In this document: positions 2,755 through 13,115 of the stretch, piece by piece | Layout of the letters: the number at the start of each line of letters is the position of its first letter | Numbering within the stretch: position 1 is the stretch's first letter | Assembly: GCA_963813705.1 (NCBI GenBank) | Contig: CAWFAH010000010.1 | Location: 921,085 to 985,084, forward strand | Direction: 5' to 3' | Source of the DNA: an uncultured Chloroflexia bacterium | GTDB lineage: Bacteria; Chloroflexota; Limnocylindria; Limnocylindrales; CSP1-4 | Length of the DNA: 64,000 nucleotides | The notes under the pieces: model-generated | The model's database searches: none | Told to the model about the DNA's origin: nothing | What the model saw: the letters and a program-made list of their open reading frames with translations, nothing else | Translations under genes and position numbers: made by a program

Positions 2755-4893
2755 CTAGCTCGCCGCGACGGGCGCTGCCGACTCCGGCGCCGCCGCGACC
2801 GGCGCGGGTGTCGCGGCCGTGCGACCGAGCTCGATCCCGATCGACTCGAGCCAGCGCCGGATGTTGCGGTAGATCGCCGGCGCCCCGAGCGGGATCGGCT
2901 CGTCGAGCTCCCACTCGGTCGGGTGGAGGATGAACGGCTCGGTCTGCGGACCGCCGAGCCCGCCGTGCGATCCGATCAGCTCCTCGAACGCGGCCACCTC
3001 GCCCAGCTCGGGGTCGTACTGGCTGATGAGCAGCAGGTCCGGGGCGTGGGTCATCGCGTCCTCGCGCTTGAGGCTCATGATCGTGTGCGGCCCGAACAGG
3101 GCCGTCGGGTCGTCGCCGTCGACCCGGTCCTGGTCGAGGTAGCGCACGCCCTTCGGGCCGAGCACGACGGCCCCCTGGCTTGCCGTGCGGACCATCAGCA
3201 TCGCCACGCCCGGGTGCGCGGCCAGCGTCGTGACGAGGTTCGGGTGGAGCTCCTCGAGCTCCTCGGCCGTCAGCCGATGATCGTTCCCGGTGAACCAGAC
3301 GAGACCGAGGTTGCCCGACCCGACCACCACGATCGTCGACTCGTCGGCCGGCGGGGGGAGCTCCTCCTGGTCGAGATCGACGACGCCGTCGGTCGTCCGG
3401 CTGGCCAGCGCGGCCCGGGCGACGGTGGGGCCTACCCCGCGGCTCCGGGTGATCTCGGACAGGAACGAGTTGACGAACGTCGATCCCTCGGCCTGGGTCG
3501 TCGTCTGCACGACGGTTGCGCGTCCGCTCATCAGGTCGCGGACCACCTCGCCGAGGCTCTTCCCGTAGCGCTGCTTGAACGTGGCGCCGAGGCTCTGGCC
3601 GTGGTCCGACAGGACGATGAACCGGTACGGGCGGGGAGCATCCTCGGCCGCCTTGGCGAGGACCGCGATCGCCGCGTCGACGCCGTCGAGCGCCTCGAAC
3701 GACTCGACCCGCTCGGGTCCGCAGTGGTGGGCCAGCTCGTCGTAGTCGGTGAAGTCGCAGTAGATGACGTTCGTGCCGCGGTACATCTCGTCGATGACGA
3801 GCGACGTGTTGACGTCGCGCAGGAAGACGTTGCTCGCGGCGCGCATCCCCGCGTACTTCATCCCCCGGTGCATCTGCGGCTGGATGCCGGCCCGCCGGGT
3901 GCGCCGCGCCTGGACGAGCTCCTTGATGAACTCGCCGAGGAACAGGGTGAACGAGCGGAGGTAGCCGGTCGGGCTGAAGAAGAAGCCCATGAACGCCTTG
4001 CTGTCGCCGATCCCCTGCGATTCGTCCTTGATCGCCGCCGTGGTGAGGTAGGAGCGCGTCGCATCGCCGGTCATCAGGTTGCAGATGCTGGCGCCGTTGT
4101 TCGACAGGAGGCCCTCGCCGTTCGACAGGCGCCGGACGATCTCGCCCGCGTCGACCGGGTTGCTCGAGACCATCAGGTGCTGACGATCGCGCTCGTACCA
4201 GCGGAAGGCGGGGATCCCGTCGTTCGTCCCGTGGAGGATGCCGGCCTGGGAGGCCGAGGTCATCGACGGCAGGATCGCCTCCCAGCGCGACAGGGTATGG
4301 CTCTTATCGCGGACCCAGCCGGCCATCGTGTTGACCGAGCCGGCCCGGATCCGACCGGCCAGGATCGGGTAGGCGAGACCGTCGATCTGGAGGATGACGA
4401 CGCCCGGCTTGTCGCTCTTCGGGCCGGCTCGCTGGACGAGCAGGCTCTGGACGAGCAGCCCGTAGAACGACCCGCCGCGGTCGACCCCGAGGATGGAGGT
4501 GAGGATCGTGTTCACGATCGCGTACACGAACGACCCGACGAGCGCGGTCAGGAACGCGTCGACGTGGACGCCGGGCGACCACTGGGCGACCACGAGGAAG
4601 GCGACCACCTGGAGGACGAGGACGAGGACGCCGGTCAGGATGAGCGAACGGGCGGCCACGAACGCCAGCAGGACGGTCCGCACGACCGCGTTGAACAGCG
4701 CCATCAGGATCACGGCGAGGACGGCGGCCCACAGCGAATCGAGGGTGATCCTCGGGAGCAGCCACGCCGTGATGACGAACGAGACCGTCGCGACGAGCAG
4801 GGTGAGGATCAGTCGTCGGACGAGCGCCCACGGGCCGCCGCGCCACTCCCAGAGGACCCGCAGCTGGGTCCGGTACAGATCGAGCAGGCCCAT
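2755..4893 (-). CDS. Membrane-anchored alkaline phosphatase / nucleotide pyrophosphatase-phosphodiesterase (type I phosphodiesterase) family protein with N-terminal holin-like 4-TM domain
   Basis: N-terminal 140 aa forms 4 TM helices. Catalytic domain motifs VVILQIDGLAY, PSMTSASQAGILHG (PTKTFPNH-like) and SDHGQ match the NPP/AlkP superfamily. Confidence 0.85.
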   Translation of the reverse strand: MGLLDLYRTQLRVLWEWRGGPWALVRRLILTLLVATVSFVITAWLLPRITLDSLWAAVLAVILMALFNAVVRTVLLAFVAARSLILTGVLVLVLQVVAFLVVAQWSPGVHVDAFLTALVGSFVYAIVNTILTSILGVDRGGSFYGLLVQSLLVQRAGPKSDKPGVVILQIDGLAYPILAGRIRAGSVNTMAGWVRDKSHTLSRWEAILPSMTSASQAGILHGTNDGIPAFRWYERDRQHLMVSSNPVDAGEIVRRLSNGEGLLSNNGASICNLMTGDATRSYLTTAAIKDESQGIGDSKAFMGFFFSPTGYLRSFTLFLGEFIKELVQARRTRRAGIQPQMHRGMKYAGMRAASNVFLRDVNTSLVIDEMYRGTNVIYCDFTDYDELAHHCGPERVESFEALDGVDAAIAVLAKAAEDAPRPYRFIVLSDHGQSLGATFKQRYGKSLGEVVRDLMSGRATVVQTTTQAEGSTFVNSFLSEITRSRGVGPTVARAALASRTTDGVVDLDQEELPPPADESTIVVVGSGNLGLVWFTGNDHRLTAEELEELHPNLVTTLAAHPGVAMLMVRTASQGAVVLGPKGVRYLDQDRVDGDDPTALFGPHTIMSLKREDAMTHAPDLLLISQYDPELGEVAAFEELIGSHGGLGGPQTEPFILHPTEWELDEPIPLGAPAIYRNIRRWLESIGIELGRTAATPAPVAAAPESAAPVAAS

Positions 4894-5016: not shown

Positions 5017-5445
5017 GTGAAGGCCGTTCGGCGGGTCCCGTTCGGGGTGTGGGTGGTGGCGATCCTCGAGATCGTCCTGACCGGGATCCTGTTCCTCGAC
5101 GCGACCGGGATCCGCCCGTCGAACAGCACCAGCATCCTCGCCCAGCTCGGTGGGACCGGCGGTCCGCTCTCGTGGGCCATCGGCGGCCTCGCCGTGGTCG
5201 GGGTCGTCGCTGCCATCGCGCTCCTCCGGCTGATGCCCATCGGGTTCGTCGCGACGACGCTCCTGGCCGGAACCGGCCTCCTCAACGAGCTCGGCTCACG
5301 GCTCAGCGGCCACACGGACGACCTCCGGCTCGGGATTCTCGTCGTCGTCGTCCTCTACCTCAACCAGCCGGCGGTGCGGGCCGTGTTCGGCCGCGATAAC
5401 CCGGCCGAGCGGGCCCCGACGCCACGCGGAGCGGAGGGCGAATGA
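5017..5445 (+). CDS. Hypothetical integral membrane protein (142 aa, 4 TM)
   Basis: GTG start. Hydrophobic helices. Its stop overlaps the ATG of the next gene (ATGA), implying translational coupling. Confidence 0.55.
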   Translation: MKAVRRVPFGVWVVAILEIVLTGILFLDATGIRPSNSTSILAQLGGTGGPLSWAIGGLAVVGVVAAIALLRLMPIGFVATTLLAGTGLLNELGSRLSGHTDDLRLGILVVVVLYLNQPAVRAVFGRDNPAERAPTPRGAEGE

Positions 5446-7247
5446 CGTCCGACCTCGAGCTCCTGCGCGCCTACGAGCCGGTGATCCAGTACACCGAGGG
5501 GGAGCTGTTCTTCCCGACCGCCGTCGAGCCGTACCTGGCCGAATGCGACCTCCTGGTGGGGACCGCCGCCGGTCACGCCCGGCTGCTCATCCCGCGGGGC
5601 GAGCTCGATGCCGCGACGCTCGCCCGCCAGGTCGCCCCGCCCGGGGAGACGCTGTTCCTGCGGCTGGTCCAGGAGCCGCTCGGTGGCCTGGCGCTCGCCC
5701 AGTGGTCACGACGACCCGACCACCCCGTCTTCCGGGCGCCCGGACGGCTGGCTCGGGTCGGGCTCTTCGCCCGGCTGGTCGACGCCGGATTCAACGCCTC
5801 GCTCCTCCTCCGCGGAACGGTCCCTGGCGGGACGGCCGCGGCGGCGTCGGTCAAGTACGAGGCCGCCCGGGCGCGTGACCCGCGCTACGTCTACCACGGA
5901 CGGGTCGTCCGGCGGGGCGGCTGGATCGTCCTCCACTACCTGTACTTCTACTTCATGAACGACTGGCGATCGACCTTCGCAGGCGCGAACGACCACGAGG
6001 CCGATCTCGAGCAGGCCTTCGTCGTGCTCGAGGACGCGCCGGAGGGTCCGCGCCCGATCTGGTTCGGCTGCGCGGCCCATGACTACTCGGGCGACGAGCT
6101 CCGCCGGCGCTGGGACGACCCGTTCATCACCCTCGTCGGGGACCATCCGGTCATCCACGCCGGGGCCGGCTCGCACGCGGCGTACTTCGAGGCCGGGGAG
6201 TACATCACGACGGTTCCCCTGCCAGCGTTCCGGGGGCTCCGCGGGCTGTTCGACGGTCTCCGTCACGTCTGGCGCGACACGCTCCGCCAGGGCGACCCGG
6301 GTGACCTCGGGGCACGGGTCGAAGCGGCGCTGAGCATCCCGTTCATCGACTACGCGCGCGGCGACGGCCGGGCGATCGGTCCCGGGCAGACGTCCGAATG
6401 GTCGGTCGTCGAGGTCGACGACGACGTCCCGTGGGTCGACGGCTACCGCGGCCTGTGGGGCCTCGACACGCGCGACCGCTTTGCCGGGGAGCGGGCGCCG
6501 GCCGGTCTCAAGTACACCCGGACCGGGTCCGTCCGGCCGTCGTGGAACGACCCGATCGGGTTCCTCGGCCTCGACAAGGTGGCGCCGCCGTTCGCGGTCG
6601 TCGGCGCGATCGACGACCGGCGCGCCGAGCTCGACGACGAGGCCGCAAAGCTCGACGCCGAGATCGCCACGGCGGCCGACGGGATCACCGGCCGCGACCA
6701 GGCCGTCAAGGCGCTGGCGGCCGACGGGGCGCTCGTCAAGGCCCACGAGCGACGGGCCGCCGAGCTGGCGGCCGAGGAGGCCGAGCTCGCGCGGCTCCGC
6801 GCCGGGCGGGTCGAGCTCGACGACGAGCGGGCCGCCCTCGACCATCGTCGCGCCGCCGCCCTCGCCGGCGAGCGGGGTGACCCGCGGGCCCACCTCCACC
6901 ACGACCACCACCCCCAGACGACCGGCGACCAGCATTACGGCCGCCTGGTCGAGTTCTGGTCGGCCGTGAGCGTGGGGCTCGGGATGATCGCCCTCATCGC
7001 CCTGCTCTTCGTCGTCCATCTGCCGATCTGGGCCGGCATCGTGCTCGCCGTCGGCGGCTACCTCGTGCTCGAGGCGGCCTTCCGCCGTCGCCTGGTCGAC
7101 CTGCTCCTCCGGATCACGCTCGTGCTCGCCCTGCTCGGCGCGGTGATCCTCGCCGTGACGTATGCCGTCGTGATCGTGGTGCTCGCGATCGTCGGCGTCG
7201 CGGTCCTCACCCTGATCGACAACATCCGCGAGATCCGCGCGAGCTAA
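5442..7247 (+). CDS. Hypothetical protein, 601 aa: N-terminal ~390-aa globular domain with aromatic motif GWIVLHYLYFYFMNDW (Vps62/DUF946-like), central coiled coil, His-rich linker (HLHHDHHP), C-terminal 3-TM anchor
   Basis: Long GC3-biased ORF. No N-terminal signal peptide. Residues ~395-470 are heptad-like Ala/Glu/Leu/Arg-rich. The last ~100 aa are strongly hydrophobic. Confidence 0.8.
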   Translation: MTSDLELLRAYEPVIQYTEGELFFPTAVEPYLAECDLLVGTAAGHARLLIPRGELDAATLARQVAPPGETLFLRLVQEPLGGLALAQWSRRPDHPVFRAPGRLARVGLFARLVDAGFNASLLLRGTVPGGTAAAASVKYEAARARDPRYVYHGRVVRRGGWIVLHYLYFYFMNDWRSTFAGANDHEADLEQAFVVLEDAPEGPRPIWFGCAAHDYSGDELRRRWDDPFITLVGDHPVIHAGAGSHAAYFEAGEYITTVPLPAFRGLRGLFDGLRHVWRDTLRQGDPGDLGARVEAALSIPFIDYARGDGRAIGPGQTSEWSVVEVDDDVPWVDGYRGLWGLDTRDRFAGERAPAGLKYTRTGSVRPSWNDPIGFLGLDKVAPPFAVVGAIDDRRAELDDEAAKLDAEIATAADGITGRDQAVKALAADGALVKAHERRAAELAAEEAELARLRAGRVELDDERAALDHRRAAALAGERGDPRAHLHHDHHPQTTGDQHYGRLVEFWSAVSVGLGMIALIALLFVVHLPIWAGIVLAVGGYLVLEAAFRRRLVDLLLRITLVLALLGAVILAVTYAVVIVVLAIVGVAVLTLIDNIREIRAS

Positions 7248-7258
7248 GGAGCCCCGTC

Positions 7259-8635
7259 ATGCCGGACATCGAGCAGCCATCCGCCGCACCCGTGGCGCCG
7301 CGGCGACGGCGCCCGAGAGCCAGGGCGATCGCGGCCGTCGTCCTCGGCCTGCTCGCCTGTGTCGCCCTGGTCGCCACCACGACGATCGGCTGGATCCACC
7401 AGGTCGCCCTCAACACCGATCGGTTCGTCGCCCTGACGTCGGCCGTCGTGGAGGACCCGGCGGTCATCGACTCGCTGAGCCACCGGGTGAGCCAGCAGGT
7501 CGTCGTCGCGCTCGACGTCGAGGGCCGGCTGGCGACCGCCCTGCCGGGCAACGCCAAGCTCCTTGCCGGGCCGATCGCCGGTTCGGTCGAGGACCGCCTC
7601 CAGGTCGGGCTCGCCAACCTGATGCAGACCGAGGGCTTCCAGCGGGCGTGGGAGCAGTCGACCCGGTTCGCCCACCAGCAGATCGTGGCCATCCTGCGCG
7701 GTGATTCGACGGTCATCACGATCGACAACGGGGTGGTGACGCTCAACGTGTTCCCGCTCGTCAACGGCGCGCTGGCGACGCTCCAGGCCGAGGGCGTGAT
7801 CCCGGCTTCGGTCACGCTGCCCGAGCTGTCGGCCTCGTCGACCCCCAGCGTGGCGCGGACGGCGCTCCAGTCGGCGCTCGGGATCACCCTCCCGGCGGAC
7901 TTCGGGACGATCGCCCTGGTCCAGGCCGACCGACTCGAGGCCGCCCAGACCGCGGTTCGCGTGTTCGACCTCCTGGTGATCGTGGCGATCGTGGTCACGA
8001 TCCTGCTGTTCGTCGCCGCGGCATACATCGCCCGTGACCGGCGCCGGGCGGTGATCCTCCTCGGGGTCGGGGCAGTGATCGCGCTCCTCGTCGCCCGGGC
8101 CGGCCTGCGCGGGCTCGAGAACGCGATCGTCGACTCGGTGGCCAACGCCGACGGGGCGGTGATCGCCCGCGGCCTGTTCGACACCGTGCTCAACGACCTG
8201 TTCGGGCTGATGGTGATCGTCACGGCGATCGGCGCGGCGGTCGCGATCGTGGCCTGGCTGATCGGACGGCGGGAGCAGATCCGCGAGCTCGCCGGGTCGA
8301 CCGGCTCGGTGGTGCGCCAGAAGACGGCCGCGGGGACCGGCGCCGCCAAGGCGATGGCCGCGTCGGCCTCGGACCGCGCCGGCGGAGCGGCGGCGGGTGG
8401 TGCGGCCGCGGCGGTGCCGGCGACCGTGGTGGCCCGGACCTGGGCCCGTGCGAACCTGCGGCTGCTCCGGCTGTCCGGGATCGCCGTCGCGGCCGCCTGG
8501 CTGGCGATCATCGCCGTCGGCTGGGAGCCGGTCGTCGTGATCGGGGCGCTGCTCGTCCTCTTCGAGGTCGGGCTCGAGCCGCTCCTGGGCGAATCGGCCG
8601 ACGGCACCGAGACAGCCGCCGAGGCCGGCGCCTGA
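7259..8635 (+). CDS. Hypothetical polytopic membrane protein (458 aa): N-terminal TM, ~200-aa extracytoplasmic domain, then multiple TM helices
   Basis: Starts 11 bp after the preceding gene. Hydrophobicity pattern and GC3 bias support it. No family recognised. Confidence 0.75.
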   Translation: MPDIEQPSAAPVAPRRRRPRARAIAAVVLGLLACVALVATTTIGWIHQVALNTDRFVALTSAVVEDPAVIDSLSHRVSQQVVVALDVEGRLATALPGNAKLLAGPIAGSVEDRLQVGLANLMQTEGFQRAWEQSTRFAHQQIVAILRGDSTVITIDNGVVTLNVFPLVNGALATLQAEGVIPASVTLPELSASSTPSVARTALQSALGITLPADFGTIALVQADRLEAAQTAVRVFDLLVIVAIVVTILLFVAAAYIARDRRRAVILLGVGAVIALLVARAGLRGLENAIVDSVANADGAVIARGLFDTVLNDLFGLMVIVTAIGAAVAIVAWLIGRREQIRELAGSTGSVVRQKTAAGTGAAKAMAASASDRAGGAAAGGAAAAVPATVVARTWARANLRLLRLSGIAVAAAWLAIIAVGWEPVVVIGALLVLFEVGLEPLLGESADGTETAAEAGA

Positions 8636-8659: not shown

Positions 8660-9295
8660 TCAGCCGAAGCGGGCGCCCTCCGGGTCGAGCACGTAGGTCG
8701 GGGTCGACCGGACCTGGGCCAGGATCCCGGCGATCGCGACGACGACGAAGACGAGGATCCACAGCGTCGACTGCTTGACGATCGCGTCGACCGGGCCCTG
8801 CTCGAGGTCGGACAGCTTGATCGTGCCGAAGATGAGCAGCACCCCGGCGACCGCCGTGGCCGCCCCGATCACCGCCGTGAGCACGATCACCAGGTACTTC
8901 GGGACCGCCAGGAGGACCCCGGCGATCGCCAGGACGATGGCCGCCCCGGCGGCGACGATGAACTCGAGGATGCCGCCGCCGAGTCCGATCGCGTTCATCA
9001 GCGCGGCCCCGAGCGCGGCGCCCACGGCGCCGCACAGGATGATGACGTCGATGATGAAGAAGAAGTAGGCGAGCAGCCCGAAGGCCACGCCCCCGACCAG
9101 GCCGACGACCCAGCCGGTCACCGTGCTCAGGAACCCATCGCCGAACAGGGCCGTCACCGCGGCCGAGCCGACGTAGAAGCCGGCGACGAACCCGAAGATC
9201 GGGAGCAGGATCAGGAAGAACCGGTAGCCGGCGACGACGAGCCCGGCTCCGATGAGCAGGGCGACGAGCCCGACGACGAGCGTCTCCAGGGTCAT
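8660..9295 (-). CDS. Hypothetical integral membrane protein (~211 aa, 6 TM)
   Basis: Start chosen at MTLETLVV, which has a GGGAGG RBS 8 nt upstream. Highly hydrophobic, Gly/Ala-rich helices. Confidence 0.75.
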   Translation of the reverse strand: MTLETLVVGLVALLIGAGLVVAGYRFFLILLPIFGFVAGFYVGSAAVTALFGDGFLSTVTGWVVGLVGGVAFGLLAYFFFIIDVIILCGAVGAALGAALMNAIGLGGGILEFIVAAGAAIVLAIAGVLLAVPKYLVIVLTAVIGAATAVAGVLLIFGTIKLSDLEQGPVDAIVKQSTLWILVFVVVAIAGILAQVRSTPTYVLDPEGARFG

Positions 9296-9396
9296 GACGA
9301 GCAACCTCCCTCAGCGGTCGAGGGGATGCTAGCGCCCGCGACCATGCCGGGACAACCCGCGGAGGCGGGCCGGTCTGCCGGTCGCCGCTGCCCGGT

Positions 9397-12300
9397 TCAG
9401 GCCGGCGTTCCCTCGACCGAGCCCGGGAGCGACTCCGCCGTCCTCGCCTGGACCCGTCGCTTGAGCCCGTCGACGAGCGAGTAGAGCACCGGGATGACGA
9501 GCAGGGTCAGGAACGTCGAGGTGAACAGTCCACCGATGACGACCGTTCCGAGCTCCGCCGCGATGATCGAGCCCTCGTTGAACCCGGCCGCCAGCGGGAT
9601 CAGGGCGAGGATGGTCGCGATCGCGGTCATGAGGATCGGCCGCACACGGGTCTTGCCGCCCTCGATCAGGGCGTCGTGGGTCGAGTACCCGCGCGAGCGG
9701 AGCCGCTCGACCAGGTCGAGCAGCACGATCGCGTTGGTGACCACGATCCCGATCAGCATCAGCATGCCGATCAGCGCGCTCACCCCGATCGGCCGGCCCG
9801 TGACGAACAGCGCGATGAAGGCGCCGATGGTCGCCAGCGGAAGGCTGAACAGGATGATGAACGGGGTGACGAGGCTGTTGAAGAAGAGGACCATCATCAC
9901 GTAGACGAGCAGGATCGCGACGCCCATCGACGCGAACAGCCCGCCGAACGCCTCGCTCTGCTGCTGGGTCACCCCGGCGAGGCGGACGTCGACGCCGGCC
10001 GGGATGGCTCCCGACGCGGTCAGGCTGTCGATCGACTTCTGGACCGCCAGGCTCACGGCCCCGGTGTCCTTGCTCGTGATCTGGGCGGTGATCGAGGCGG
10101 CGGGCGCCTGGTCGATCCGGGTGATGCTTCCCTGGGCCTCGACCTGGTCGACCGAGGCGATGCTGCCGAGGGGGACCTTGCGCGCCGTCCCGACGGGGAG
10201 GGCCTTGAGGTCGTCGAGCGAGGTGGTCGCCGCCGGATCGAGCTGGACGACCACCGCGGCCGTCTCGCCGCCGTCGAGCGACACCGTCGTCGCCGTCGTC
10301 GGCGAGAGCGCGCTGCGCACCTCGGCGGCGATCTGGGCGGCCGTGGAGCCGGCCGCGATCGCCTTGTTCGGGTCGACCGTGACCTGGACCTGCGTGTTCG
10401 CCTTCGCAGCATCGCTCCGCAGGTTGCCGAGGTCGGTCCGCTTGGCGAGCTCGGCGATCACGGCGTCGCTGGCGTGCTGGACCTGGGTCGGGTCGGCGCC
10501 GCTGACGATGACGTTGAGGTTGTTGGAGGTGAACCCGGCCGCTTCGCTGATATGGATCTCGTAGCCGTCCGTGCCGACCGGTGCCAGCGCCTCGTCGAGC
10601 GCCGTGGTCTCGGTGGCGAGGTCGGTCGTCGGGACGAGCCGGACGGTGATCGTCGCGCTGTTTGCCGGCCGGCCGCTGAACGCCGCGAGGAGGGTCGCGA
10701 AGCCCGTGGCTCCTTCGCCCGGGACGGTTGTCTGGACGAGCTCCACCTCGGGCCGGGCACGGAGGATCGCTTCCGCCTTGACCGCCTGGTCGAGGACCGC
10801 CTTGGAGTCGGTCCCCGTCGGCGGCGCCACGGTCACGGCCAGGATCTTCTCCGAGCCGGCGTTGATGAACTGCGTCGGCAGGCTCGGCACGAGGGCAGCG
10901 GAGGCGACGAAGAGGATGCCGGCGACCGCGAGGACGGCCCATTGGGTGCGCCGGTTGCGGAGGGCCGCCGTGATCAAGGGCACGTAGGCGTGGACCCAGA
11001 TCGAGCGCTTCGGCTCGCCGGTCTCGTCGACGCTCACCGAGACTCGCCCGATGAACAGGAAGGCGAGGACCGGGACGACGGTCAGGGCACAGATCAGGGA
11101 GGCCAGCAGGGCGAACGTCACGGTGAGGGCGAAGGGCAGGAAGAACTGGCTCACCAGGCCGCCGACGAAGCCGAGCGGCAGGAAGACGGCAACGGTCGTC
11201 AGCGTGCTGGCCGTGATCGCCCCGGCCACCTCCCGTGGCCCGCGCGTCACCGCCGTCAGCCGGTCCTCGCCGAGCGAACGGTGGCGATAGATGTTCTCGA
11301 GCACCACGATCGCGTCGTCGACCACTCGCCCGACGGCGACGGCCAGGCCGCCCAGGGTCATGATGTTCAGGCTGATCCCGGTCAGCTGCATGACGACGAG
11401 GGCGGTCAGGATCGACAGCGGGATGCTGATCGCCGCAACGAGCGTGGAGCGGAGGCTGCCCAGGAACAGGAAGATCGTCGCCACGGCGAAGATCGCGCCC
11501 AGACCGCCCTCGCGCAGCAGGCCGTCCTGCGACTCCTTGATGAAGGTCGACTGGTCGGACACCGTGGTGACCGTCACCTGCCCCTGGTGGGCGGCGGCGA
11601 CCTCCGCCAGCTTGGCCTGGACGGCATCGGCCACCTCGACCGTGTTCGCCGACGACGTCTTCGTGACCGTCAGGGTGAGCGCCGGCTGGCCGTTCGTCCG
11701 GGCGAAGCCGGTGCTCGCCACACCGGCCTGCTCGACGGTCGCGACGTCGCTCAGCCGAACCGGAGTCGGGACAGTCGGCGCCGCGGATGGCTGGGGAGCG
11801 GACGACGCGCCCGCGCCGGGGCTCCCGCTCGCGGCCGGCGAACCGGTCCCCGTCGACGACGGGACGCGGAACCCGACGACGAGGGCCTCGAGGTCCTGGA
11901 CGGAACGGAATGTGCCGTTCGTCGAGACCGGGATTCGGCTCGCCCCGGCCGAGATCTGGCCGGACGGGACGGTCAGGTTGTTGGCCTGGAGGAGCTGGAC
12001 GACCTGCTGGCTCGAGACGTTGGCGGCGGCAAGCTTCGCCGGGTCGAGGGTGATCACGACCTGCTGCTCCAGACCGCCGGTCAGGTCGGCCTGCGCGACG
12101 CCCTCGACCGACTGGACGGCCGGGACGATCTCGCTCCGGGCGATGTCCGCGGCGGCCGTCAGTCCGTCCTGGCTCGTCGCCGCGATCGAGGCCACGACCA
12201 CCGGCGACGAGTTGATGTTGAACGCCGACACGTCGGGCGTGACGTTCGCCGGCAAGCCGGCCCGGGAGAGGTTCTCCTGGATCGTGGCCACGGCCTCCTT

Positions 12301-12606
12301 GACGTCGGTTCCGAAGCTGAACTGCGCGACGACCAGGGCGATCGAGTCGGCCGACGTCGATTGGAGGCTCTCGAGCCGGGCGACGCCGCCGACCGACCGC
12401 TCGATCGGCTTTGCCACCTGGTCTGCGACGTCCTCGGCACCGACCCCTGGGTAGGTCGCCACGACCGTGACGACGGGAAAGTCGATGTTCGGCAGGAGCT
12501 CCTGCTGGAGACTGCCCCACGCGGAGATCCCGGCCAGGAACAGGCCGAACGCCAGCAGGAGGGTGACGCTGCGCTTGGCGACGGCCAGCTCGGACAGGCG
12601 ACTCAT
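9397..12606 (-). CDS. Efflux RND transporter permease subunit (AcrB/HAE family)
   Basis: 1069 aa with 12-TM topology, large periplasmic loops and conserved N-terminus MSRLSELAVAKRSVTLLLAFGLFLAG...LPNIDFPVVTVVATYPG. Confidence 0.9.
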   Translation of the reverse strand: MSRLSELAVAKRSVTLLLAFGLFLAGISAWGSLQQELLPNIDFPVVTVVATYPGVGAEDVADQVAKPIERSVGGVARLESLQSTSADSIALVVAQFSFGTDVKEAVATIQENLSRAGLPANVTPDVSAFNINSSPVVVASIAATSQDGLTAAADIARSEIVPAVQSVEGVAQADLTGGLEQQVVITLDPAKLAAANVSSQQVVQLLQANNLTVPSGQISAGASRIPVSTNGTFRSVQDLEALVVGFRVPSSTGTGSPAASGSPGAGASSAPQPSAAPTVPTPVRLSDVATVEQAGVASTGFARTNGQPALTLTVTKTSSANTVEVADAVQAKLAEVAAAHQGQVTVTTVSDQSTFIKESQDGLLREGGLGAIFAVATIFLFLGSLRSTLVAAISIPLSILTALVVMQLTGISLNIMTLGGLAVAVGRVVDDAIVVLENIYRHRSLGEDRLTAVTRGPREVAGAITASTLTTVAVFLPLGFVGGLVSQFFLPFALTVTFALLASLICALTVVPVLAFLFIGRVSVSVDETGEPKRSIWVHAYVPLITAALRNRRTQWAVLAVAGILFVASAALVPSLPTQFINAGSEKILAVTVAPPTGTDSKAVLDQAVKAEAILRARPEVELVQTTVPGEGATGFATLLAAFSGRPANSATITVRLVPTTDLATETTALDEALAPVGTDGYEIHISEAAGFTSNNLNVIVSGADPTQVQHASDAVIAELAKRTDLGNLRSDAAKANTQVQVTVDPNKAIAAGSTAAQIAAEVRSALSPTTATTVSLDGGETAAVVVQLDPAATTSLDDLKALPVGTARKVPLGSIASVDQVEAQGSITRIDQAPAASITAQITSKDTGAVSLAVQKSIDSLTASGAIPAGVDVRLAGVTQQQSEAFGGLFASMGVAILLVYVMMVLFFNSLVTPFIILFSLPLATIGAFIALFVTGRPIGVSALIGMLMLIGIVVTNAIVLLDLVERLRSRGYSTHDALIEGGKTRVRPILMTAIATILALIPLAAGFNEGSIIAAELGTVVIGGLFTSTFLTLLVIPVLYSLVDGLKRRVQARTAESLPGSVEGTPA

Positions 12607-13115
12607 GAGGGCTCCTTCGATGTGGCCGCGGTCGGAGCCGTGGCGGACGCGGGGGCGGGGACGGCCATCTCGGTGACGGCTTTGGTCAGGATGCGGATCG
12701 AGCGGTCGACCGTGGCCAGGTCCGCGGTCGCCACGCGGTCGAGCATCGCTCGCATGTGCCCGGCGTTCAGCTCGCGCATCCGATCGAGGCTGGCGGCCCC
12801 GACGTCGGTCATGGTCAGGAGGACCTGGCGGCGGTCGGCAGGGTCGTCGCGGCGGTCGACCAGGCCCGCCTCGACGAGCCGCTCGACGAGGCCGCTGGCC
12901 GTCGACACCGTCACCCCGAGCCGGGCTGCCAGCTCGGACATCCCGAGTGGCGTGGACGCCTGGACGAGGTAGAGGACCTTGGCCTGGGACATCGTCATGC
13001 CGACTTCGGTGAACTCCGGGGCATGGGTTGCGGCCATGCGCTGCATGAACGCGTCGAAGCCAGTCATCACGTTCGCCAGCAGCGTGGCGCGGTCCGGGCT
13101 GTCATTCGGTGTCAT
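12603..13115 (-). CDS. MarR family transcriptional regulator
   Basis: 170 aa with winged-HTH region (MSQAKVLYLVQAS...ELAARLGVTVSTASGLVERLVEAGLVDRRDDPADRRQV). Its stop overlaps the RND start by 4 nt, forming an operon. Confidence 0.9.
   Translation of the reverse strand: MTPNDSPDRATLLANVMTGFDAFMQRMAATHAPEFTEVGMTMSQAKVLYLVQASTPLGMSELAARLGVTVSTASGLVERLVEAGLVDRRDDPADRRQVLLTMTDVGAASLDRMRELNAGHMRAMLDRVATADLATVDRSIRILTKAVTEMAVPAPASATAPTAATSKEPS

Follow-up and report, generated by a model that had tools for sequence, protein, structure and literature searches.

Gene organization of the locus

The 64,000-nucleotide stretch of DNA analysed here (hereinafter the window; positions 921,085 to 985,084 of contig CAWFAH010000010.1, assembly GCA_963813705.1, from an uncultured Chloroflexia bacterium) contains three consecutive forward-strand genes for membrane-associated proteins, and the subject of this analysis is the second of these, gene 2, together with its small upstream partner, gene 1. 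Gene 1 (5017-5445, +) starts with GTG and encodes a small membrane protein of 142 aa with about four transmembrane (TM) helices. Gene 2 (5442-7247, +; ATG start) encodes a 601-aa protein in which a head resembling the NLPs (Nep1-like proteins; Pfam NPP1, for necrosis-inducing protein), secreted toxins that act on plant cells, is predicted to precede a helical hairpin and a four-helix anchor at the C-terminus, and gene 3 (7259-8635, +; ATG start) encodes an all-helical membrane protein of 458 aa. The stop codon of gene 1 and the start codon of gene 2 overlap in an ATGA tetranucleotide (5442-5445, +). The spacing between genes 2 and 3 is 11 nt, and the Shine-Dalgarno (SD) sequence of gene 3, AAGGAG (7246-7251, +), overlaps the stop codon of gene 2 and lies 7 nt ahead of the ATG. 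The initial annotation of this DNA, made from the nucleotide sequence, had placed the three open reading frames (ORFs) at these positions; ORF calls and translations bear this out, and both the overlap and the gap that it described are seen in the sequence.

The GC content at third codon positions is 0.92-0.95 across all three frames (0.92 in gene 1), which is typical of coding frames in DNA with a genomic GC content of 71%, so that all three can be considered real genes. Given the SD site and the short intergenic gap, genes 1, 2 and 3 probably share one transcript in the source genome; a scan for promoters and terminators, which is uninformative in this GC-rich lineage, returned no sites. Scans of the three proteins against Pfam, NCBIfam, PADLOC and PHROG yielded no significant family match for any of them, in agreement with their original description as membrane-associated unknowns that could be assigned to no enzyme or transporter family.

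The origin of the DNA was misjudged in that description, which sought relatives among Actinobacteria. The relatives are named Candidatus Limnocylindrales or 'uncultured Chloroflexia' and come from soil metagenome-assembled genomes, that is, from Chloroflexota of the class Limnocylindria, and the closest genome locus encodes a gene 2 protein that is 94% identical. Some further close relatives with 76-83% identity (proteins P0003 and P0005; locus L035) lie on 4-kb contigs labelled 'Patescibacteria group' and 'Candidatus Dormiibacterota'; in view of their identity to Limnocylindria genes, these labels are probably binning errors.

Genes 1 and 2 form a conserved two-gene module

Gene 2 belongs to a large family. 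At the 90% level, its relatives fall into more than 5,126 clusters, every one of them annotated as 'hypothetical' and devoid of a Pfam domain. At the 50% level, 1,193 clusters are recovered at E<=1e-3 and 260 at E<=1e-30, most of them consisting of proteins of about 600 aa. The choice of gene 2 as the centre of interest of the locus was well placed.

The genomic context was examined in 42 genome loci and 80 metagenome loci that carry gene 2 relatives with 43-94% identity, on contigs with GC contents of 0.43-0.74; the breadth of the family beyond the named relatives was judged from the GC range of the metagenome contigs. In all 42 genome loci (55-94% identity), the position of gene 2 on the chromosome is syntenic, and its conservation is similar to that of the neighbouring housekeeping-type genes. 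Gene 1 was searched for with a hidden Markov model (HMM) that was built up in iterations from the fetched loci. Of the 95 informative loci (those with room upstream), 80 have a same-strand copy immediately ahead of gene 2 and another 2 an in-frame fusion of the two genes, which gives 82 of 95 with an adjacent or fused gene 1, spread over the entire GC range of 0.43-0.74. When all ORFs of the loci were clustered de novo, the gene 1 cluster was the only one to travel with gene 2 (86 versus 103 loci).

The fusion proteins are 766-772 aa long (L102:2245-4563 and L126:4290-6590, as well as P0139 of the representative library), and in each the gene 1-like segment with its four TM helices is located about 25-30 residues N-terminal of the gene 2 head. 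Pfam scans of gene 2 relatives with N-terminal extensions revealed no extra domain besides this segment. Tandem duplicates of gene 1 precede gene 2 (at approximately 6001) in four loci (L019, L022, L028 and L036). Hydropathy analysis of the gene 1 protein indicates 3-4 TM helices, and the family consensus ends in ...RLRRWAW...YLNQREVRAAF. The neighbours in distant loci are a mixture of unrelated families (for example, VWA_CoxE, GCV_T, HTS, M23 and DUF218) that includes no further conserved partner. Because gene 1 is linked to gene 2, gene 3 is not (see below), and the distant neighbourhoods are heterogeneous, the conserved unit consists of genes 1 and 2, a real, widespread and uncharacterised two-gene membrane module. 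Of the three-gene operon originally proposed, the gene 1-gene 2 portion stands, whereas gene 3 falls outside the conserved portion.

Only in two loci, L112:349-2774 and L120:483-1862, both on mid-GC metagenome contigs, is gene 1 immediately preceded by a same-strand VWA_CoxE gene (PF05762); in L112, this gene in turn follows an ORF of 347 aa.

Domain architecture of the gene 2 protein

The AlphaFold2 (AF2) model of the gene 2 protein (mean predicted local distance difference test score, pLDDT, 78.9; predicted template-modelling score, pTM, 0.74) and an alignment of 39 relatives together delineate three regions that differ in conservation. The head (residues 1-380 in the alignment), assigned here to residues 1-382 (5442-6587, +), is very strongly conserved and is predicted to be an enlarged cytoplasmic domain of the NLP/NPP1 fold. 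It is followed by a variable helical hairpin of about 92 residues (383-474; 6588-6863, +), which is antiparallel, rich in Ala, Glu and Arg, and poorly conserved in sequence. The membrane anchor (494-600; 6921-7241, +) is moderately conserved and, according to both AF2 and hydropathy, comprises four hydrophobic helices that span residues 494-525, 529-547, 551-573 and 575-600 in the model. The RR(R) loop past the second anchor helix is conserved as well: position 548 is Arg in 255 of 283 relatives, and position 549 in 218 of 283. The C-terminal portion had initially been described as a coiled coil followed by three TM helices; the Ala/Glu/Arg-rich helical segment is indeed present, but in the model it folds back on itself as the antiparallel hairpin, and the helices after it number four.

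A short membrane-proximal linker, HLHHDHHP (residues 484-491; 6891-6914, +), lies between the hairpin and the anchor. This His-rich run had been suggested as a possible metal site, and it is present in the protein from the window, but it is not a feature of the family, in which only H484 and P491 are conserved: H484 is retained in 285 of 295 relatives, whereas H487, H489 and H490 are His in 191, 166 and 107 of 295, respectively.

The gene 2 head as a probable distant member of the NLP superfamily

Several lines of evidence connect the head with the NLPs. In the AF2 model, the head displays the beta-sandwich fold of the NLPs, and the top two Foldseek matches are both members of this superfamily (9wsc, probability 0.92; HaNLP3, 6qbe, 0.72), albeit with weak E-values. 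In profile-profile comparison with hhalign, the gene 2 family matches an alignment of 4 NPP1 proteins with a probability of 53% (E 1.3e-4) and an alignment of 12 with 72.9% (E 3.1e-5), the bacterial NPP1 comparison set having been taken from plasmid records. Sub-threshold matches to Pfam NPP1 are found in 12 of the 39 relatives at E<=10, with residues ~153-219 aligned to profile positions 52-114. A sequence search of the PDB with full-length family profiles produced coiled-coil noise only. Taken together, these observations make it probable that the gene 2 head is a distant, enlarged domain of the NLP superfamily by both fold and homology, although gene 2 scores too low to count as a member of Pfam NPP1 under the threshold of that family.

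The hhalign alignment pairs gene 2 residues 160-191 (5919-6014, +) with the signature region of the NLPs (nlp24/GHRHDWE; AIMYSWYMPKD93...GH101RHD104WE106). This segment consists of the aromatic motif GWIVLHYLYFYFMNDW (residues 160-175, with D174 in the penultimate position) continued by RSTFAGAND-H185-EA-D188-L-E190-Q. The aromatic motif singled out in the initial annotation has thus proved to be a good lead because it belongs to the strand-loop-strand element that bears the cation-binding motif. The family to which it led, Vps62/DUF946, was a near miss. At E<=10, the Pfam model of Vps62 (PF06101) does not match the gene 2 protein from the window, nor does this family appear in the list of the 25 that the 39 relatives hit most frequently. 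The Vps62 proteins themselves are reported to possess an HVGDWEH motif that resembles the NLP heptapeptide GHRHDWE (PMC13159263), which makes the impression of similarity understandable, and part of the Pfam Vps62 family corresponds to a beta-tripod domain (PMC7613979, PMC8624791).

The residues that form the cation- and ligand-binding pocket of the NLPs are almost completely preserved in the gene 2 family. The numbering of NLPPya was confirmed on PDB 3gnz, in which residues 83-112 read, in succession, AIMYSWYMPKD93, SPSTGIGH101, RHD104W105E106 and NVVVWL, and conservation was counted over 373 gene 2 relatives. D93 of NLPPya corresponds to D174 of gene 2 (conserved in 310 of 354), H101 to H185 (350/352), D104 to D188 (350/352), E106 to E190 (347/353), H128 to H213 (337/348, in the context CAAHD) and H159 to H235 (325/347, in the context GDHPV). 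These six positions are therefore kept in 88-99% of the relatives, and the heptapeptide and the pocket are present in the variant form NDH185EAD188(L/W)E190 with D174, H213 and H235. In the toxins, this acidic pocket accommodates a divalent cation together with the sugar-phosphate head group of a membrane sphingolipid. The same pocket residues are listed as critical for the cytotoxicity of the NLPs (PMC7031652), and D93 and D104 coordinate Mg2+ in a cavity implicated in binding the plant sphingolipid glycosylinositol phosphorylceramide (GIPC) (PMC8078777). By this alignment, the gene 2 head retains the predicted cation/ligand pocket of the NLPs.

The motif Trp, W105 of NLPPya, corresponds to L189 of gene 2, a position that is Trp in 227 relatives and Leu in 116. 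Within residues 179-191 (5976-6014), the clade of the window has Leu at this position (NDHEADLE), whereas two thirds of the family have NDHEADWE; as judged from the alignment, the Leu appears to be a clade-specific change in the predicted pocket.

The conservation of the head extends far beyond the pocket. The residues by which it exceeds an NLP include segments rich in invariant positions, namely RRRWDDP (221-227), AGAGSHA (240-246), DYARGDG (303-309) and LDTxDRFxGERAPAG (341-355), and additional invariant Arg residues include R111, R176, R222, R365 and others. A phosphate-bearing ligand would fit this abundance of extra invariant Arg residues in the head.

Predicted topology and a proposed mechanism

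A signal peptide and conserved cysteines characterise the NLPs, which are secreted and about 210-250 aa long. The gene 2 protein, in contrast, begins with MTSDLELLRAYEPVIQY, which is not hydrophobic and does not constitute an NLP-type signal peptide, and no invariant Cys pair is present in the alignment of its relatives. The gene 1 protein has a basic N-terminus, and the RLRR of its family consensus is located in the loop between the second and third TM helices. Under the positive-inside rule, the basic residues would place the N- and C-terminal ends of the head, like the RRR loop of the anchor, in the cytoplasm. A cytoplasmic head is further supported by the in-frame fusions, which join the N-terminus of the head to the last helix of the four-TM domain and so set the head between two membrane anchors. 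We infer from these features that the head is located on the cytoplasmic face of the membrane.

Based on the above considerations, the following mechanism can be proposed as the most likely one. The products of genes 1 and 2 would form a two-protein module of the inner membrane, with the non-secreted head apposed to the cytoplasmic face. On its C-terminal side, the head would be tethered by the hairpin and the four-helix anchor, and on its N-terminal side, it would associate with the four-TM gene 1 protein, to which it is covalently fused in some species. The pocket may then mediate Mg2+- or Ca2+-dependent recognition, and possibly turnover, of a phosphorylated or glycosylated head group of an inner-leaflet lipid, with whatever downstream effect such binding would have, and the hairpin may serve for self-association or partner binding. 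We estimate the probability that a membrane-apposed, cytoplasmic NLP-like head acts in this manner, together with the four-TM gene 1 protein, to bind and possibly process a phospho- or glycolipid head group through a divalent cation at roughly 0.45; the ligand component of this proposal is less certain than the fold and the homology.

Several observations weigh against this proposal. As far as the homology is concerned, the best relatives score 14.6-18.2 bits against Pfam NPP1, compared with a gathering score of 21, and the gene 2 protein from the window does not match this model at E<=10. The hhalign probability is only moderate and applies to 84-87 columns including the motif, and no NLP chain was recovered when the PDB sequences were searched with a motif-region profile. 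With respect to the pocket, the invariant-rich loops 175-187 and 340-352 have pLDDT values below 50, no other part of the head model being of low confidence, so that the pocket geometry in the model is tentative, and about 200 residues of the head, many of them invariant, fall outside the NLP core. The topology is based on charge rules only, and the gene 1 HMM detects no copy in 13 of the 95 informative loci. Finally, the substrate is not pointed to by any ligand or lipid pathway, nor by a recurring functional neighbour in the scan of the distant loci.

Alternative interpretations of the head and the role of gene 3

The gene that diverges from the pair in the window (2755-4893, -) encodes a 712-aa protein that combines a Phage_holin_4_2/DUF360 domain with four TM helices (PF04020) and a type I phosphodiesterase/nucleotide pyrophosphatase domain (PF01663). 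Homologues of this PF04020-PF01663 protein are encoded beside the pair in about 10 loci of Limnocylindria, divergently in the window, L001-L004 and L041, and directly upstream on the same strand in L022, L024, L028 and L037.

The large invariant portion of the head also lends itself to a different interpretation, namely that the head is a membrane-associated metallo-enzyme, a hydrolase or transferase, in which the NLP-derived Asp/His/Glu site would not merely bind but catalyse a reaction on a phosphorylated substrate such as a lipid-linked precursor, a nucleotide or polyphosphate. The head is almost double an NLP in size, and beyond the NLP pocket it has an unusually high number of invariant polar residues, as is typical of active sites; among them are R111, R176, S177, N183, D184, E186, R221-R222-R223-W-D-D226, S244-H245, D303-Y-x-R306, D345, E350, R360 and R365. 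A gene for a membrane-anchored type I phosphodiesterase, moreover, adjoins the pair in 10 loci and in both orientations. However, enzymatic activity is known for no NLP, neither the fold nor the profile of the head matches that of any enzyme family, and the phosphodiesterase neighbour is confined to part of Limnocylindria. An enzyme of this kind is rather unlikely, although the extra invariant residues favour it.

Whether gene 3 belongs to the system can be judged from the comparison of loci. The initial annotation envisaged a three-component membrane system centred on a Vps62-like protein that carries a possible His-rich metal site, and in the source genome such a system is suggested by the contiguous one-strand arrangement with its 4-nt overlap, 11-nt gap and SD sequence, which is shared with the closest clade (L001, L003-L009 and L041). 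In addition, homologues of gene 3 lie beside gene 2 in six more genomes, although inverted, and a DWE-type motif is common to the Vps62 proteins (PMC13159263). Conservation of the three-gene order, which that annotation had named beforehand as a test of its proposal, does not hold: the gene 3 cluster is found in 16 of approximately 103 loci and is on the same strand as gene 2 in 9 of the 16, these being the loci of the closest clade, to which the same-strand arrangement is confined. Gene 3 is missing in L002, L010, L011, L017 and L039 in spite of gene 2 proteins that are about 80% identical, and in L015, L018-L020, L033 and L040 it is located on the opposite strand. The family of gene 3 is also small, with 70 relatives found (the closest 100% identical) compared with more than 5,000 for gene 2. 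The His run is not conserved either, and the Vps62 HMM does not match. Taken together, a system of this composition is improbable, and gene 3 is a clade-specific neighbour outside the conserved module.

Where gene 3 is inverted, it still lies beside a gene for a TM7S3/TM198-like (PF13886) membrane protein, and because this adjacency persists, gene 3 may be tied to that gene rather than to gene 2. In the window, the TM7S3/TM198-like gene (214 aa; 8660-9304, -) is convergent with gene 3. The gene 3 protein is predicted to be all-helical (pLDDT 78) and consists, in this order, of an N-terminal TM helix, a helical outer domain of ~190 aa, about 3 TM helices, a long helix, a disordered Ala/Gly-rich stretch and 2 TM helices. 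A fold search with this model returned generic helical-membrane matches and no convincing fold match. Among these, the lipoprotein intramolecular transacylase Lit (7B0O; DUF1461, 2FB5) is an unconfirmed lead, given that its score is within the generic helical-membrane range, gene 3 is twice as long and no HMM supports the match.

The remaining possibility, that gene 2 encodes a latent membrane-damaging effector (a toxin, or an agent of abortive infection or stress lysis) turned against the membrane of its own cell, with the gene 1 protein serving as regulator or immunity factor, draws on the cytolytic activity of the NLPs (PMC8078777), on the resemblance of a gene with a small membrane partner to toxin/immunity pairs and on the holin-type four-TM domain (PF04020) of the neighbouring gene, but is most improbable in view of the stable synteny and housekeeping-like conservation in 42 of 42 genome loci, the lack of PADLOC or PHROG matches, of viral relatives and of mobile-element or defence-island neighbours, and the covalent gene 1-gene 2 fusions, which suit a structural partner better than an antidote.

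Farther downstream in the window, an AcrB-type RND transporter of 1069 aa (PF00873, E 1e-205; 9397-12606, -) is preceded by a MarR-family regulator (12603-13115, -), the 3' end of which overlaps the start of the transporter gene by 4 nt. These two genes look like an ordinary efflux operon and are syntenic in many relatives.

Comparison with characterised NLPs and implications

Compared with NLPs of known structure (PF05630; NLPPya, 3GNZ; MpNEP2, 3ST1; PcNLP485, 9WSC), the gene 2 protein differs in several respects. It lacks a signal peptide and the conserved disulfide cysteines, and its head measures about 380 aa against about 210 in the NLPs, a surplus of about 170 residues. NDHEAD(W/L)E takes the place of the GHRHDWE motif, and the loop from the first Asp to the His is 3 residues longer. 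The head is followed by the hairpin and the four-helix anchor, it is paired with or fused to a four-TM protein, and it is predicted to be intracellular. The hosts differ as well, being free-living bacteria of soil and sediment rather than plant-associated microbes. As for Vps62, the yeast founder of that family is likewise membrane-associated. The fold and the pocket are thus of a known kind, whereas the architecture, the predicted location, the four-TM partner and the host range are new; neither this family nor any intracellular, membrane-anchored NLP-like protein is described in Pfam (2025 copy), NCBIfam (2026), PADLOC, PHROGs, the PDB or the searched literature.

NLPs have been studied almost solely as secreted necrosis toxins and as elicitors of immunity in the context of plant pathogens, and where the fold originated, and whether it has any other role, is an open question. 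A broader scenario, which is rather doubtful at present, is that the NLP fold, so far known only from cytolysins that plant-associated microbes secrete, possesses an ancient bacterial housekeeping branch in which a cytoplasmic, doubly anchored head with a four-TM partner would read or remodel an inner-leaflet lipid via the same cation pocket. Under this scenario, the secreted toxins would have evolved by later export, and the gene pair would represent a new membrane-homeostasis system of soil bacteria, Chloroflexota among them. If true, an intracellular branch of the NLP fold would surprise specialists. The family is definable as a new entry for Pfam/InterPro, the two-gene module is simple enough for biochemistry, and the family points to a lipid head-group ligand in the poorly known Chloroflexota of soil. 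As a large, unannotated family of predicted intracellular, membrane-tethered proteins that keep the NLP pocket, it offers a concrete handle on the origin of the NLP fold.

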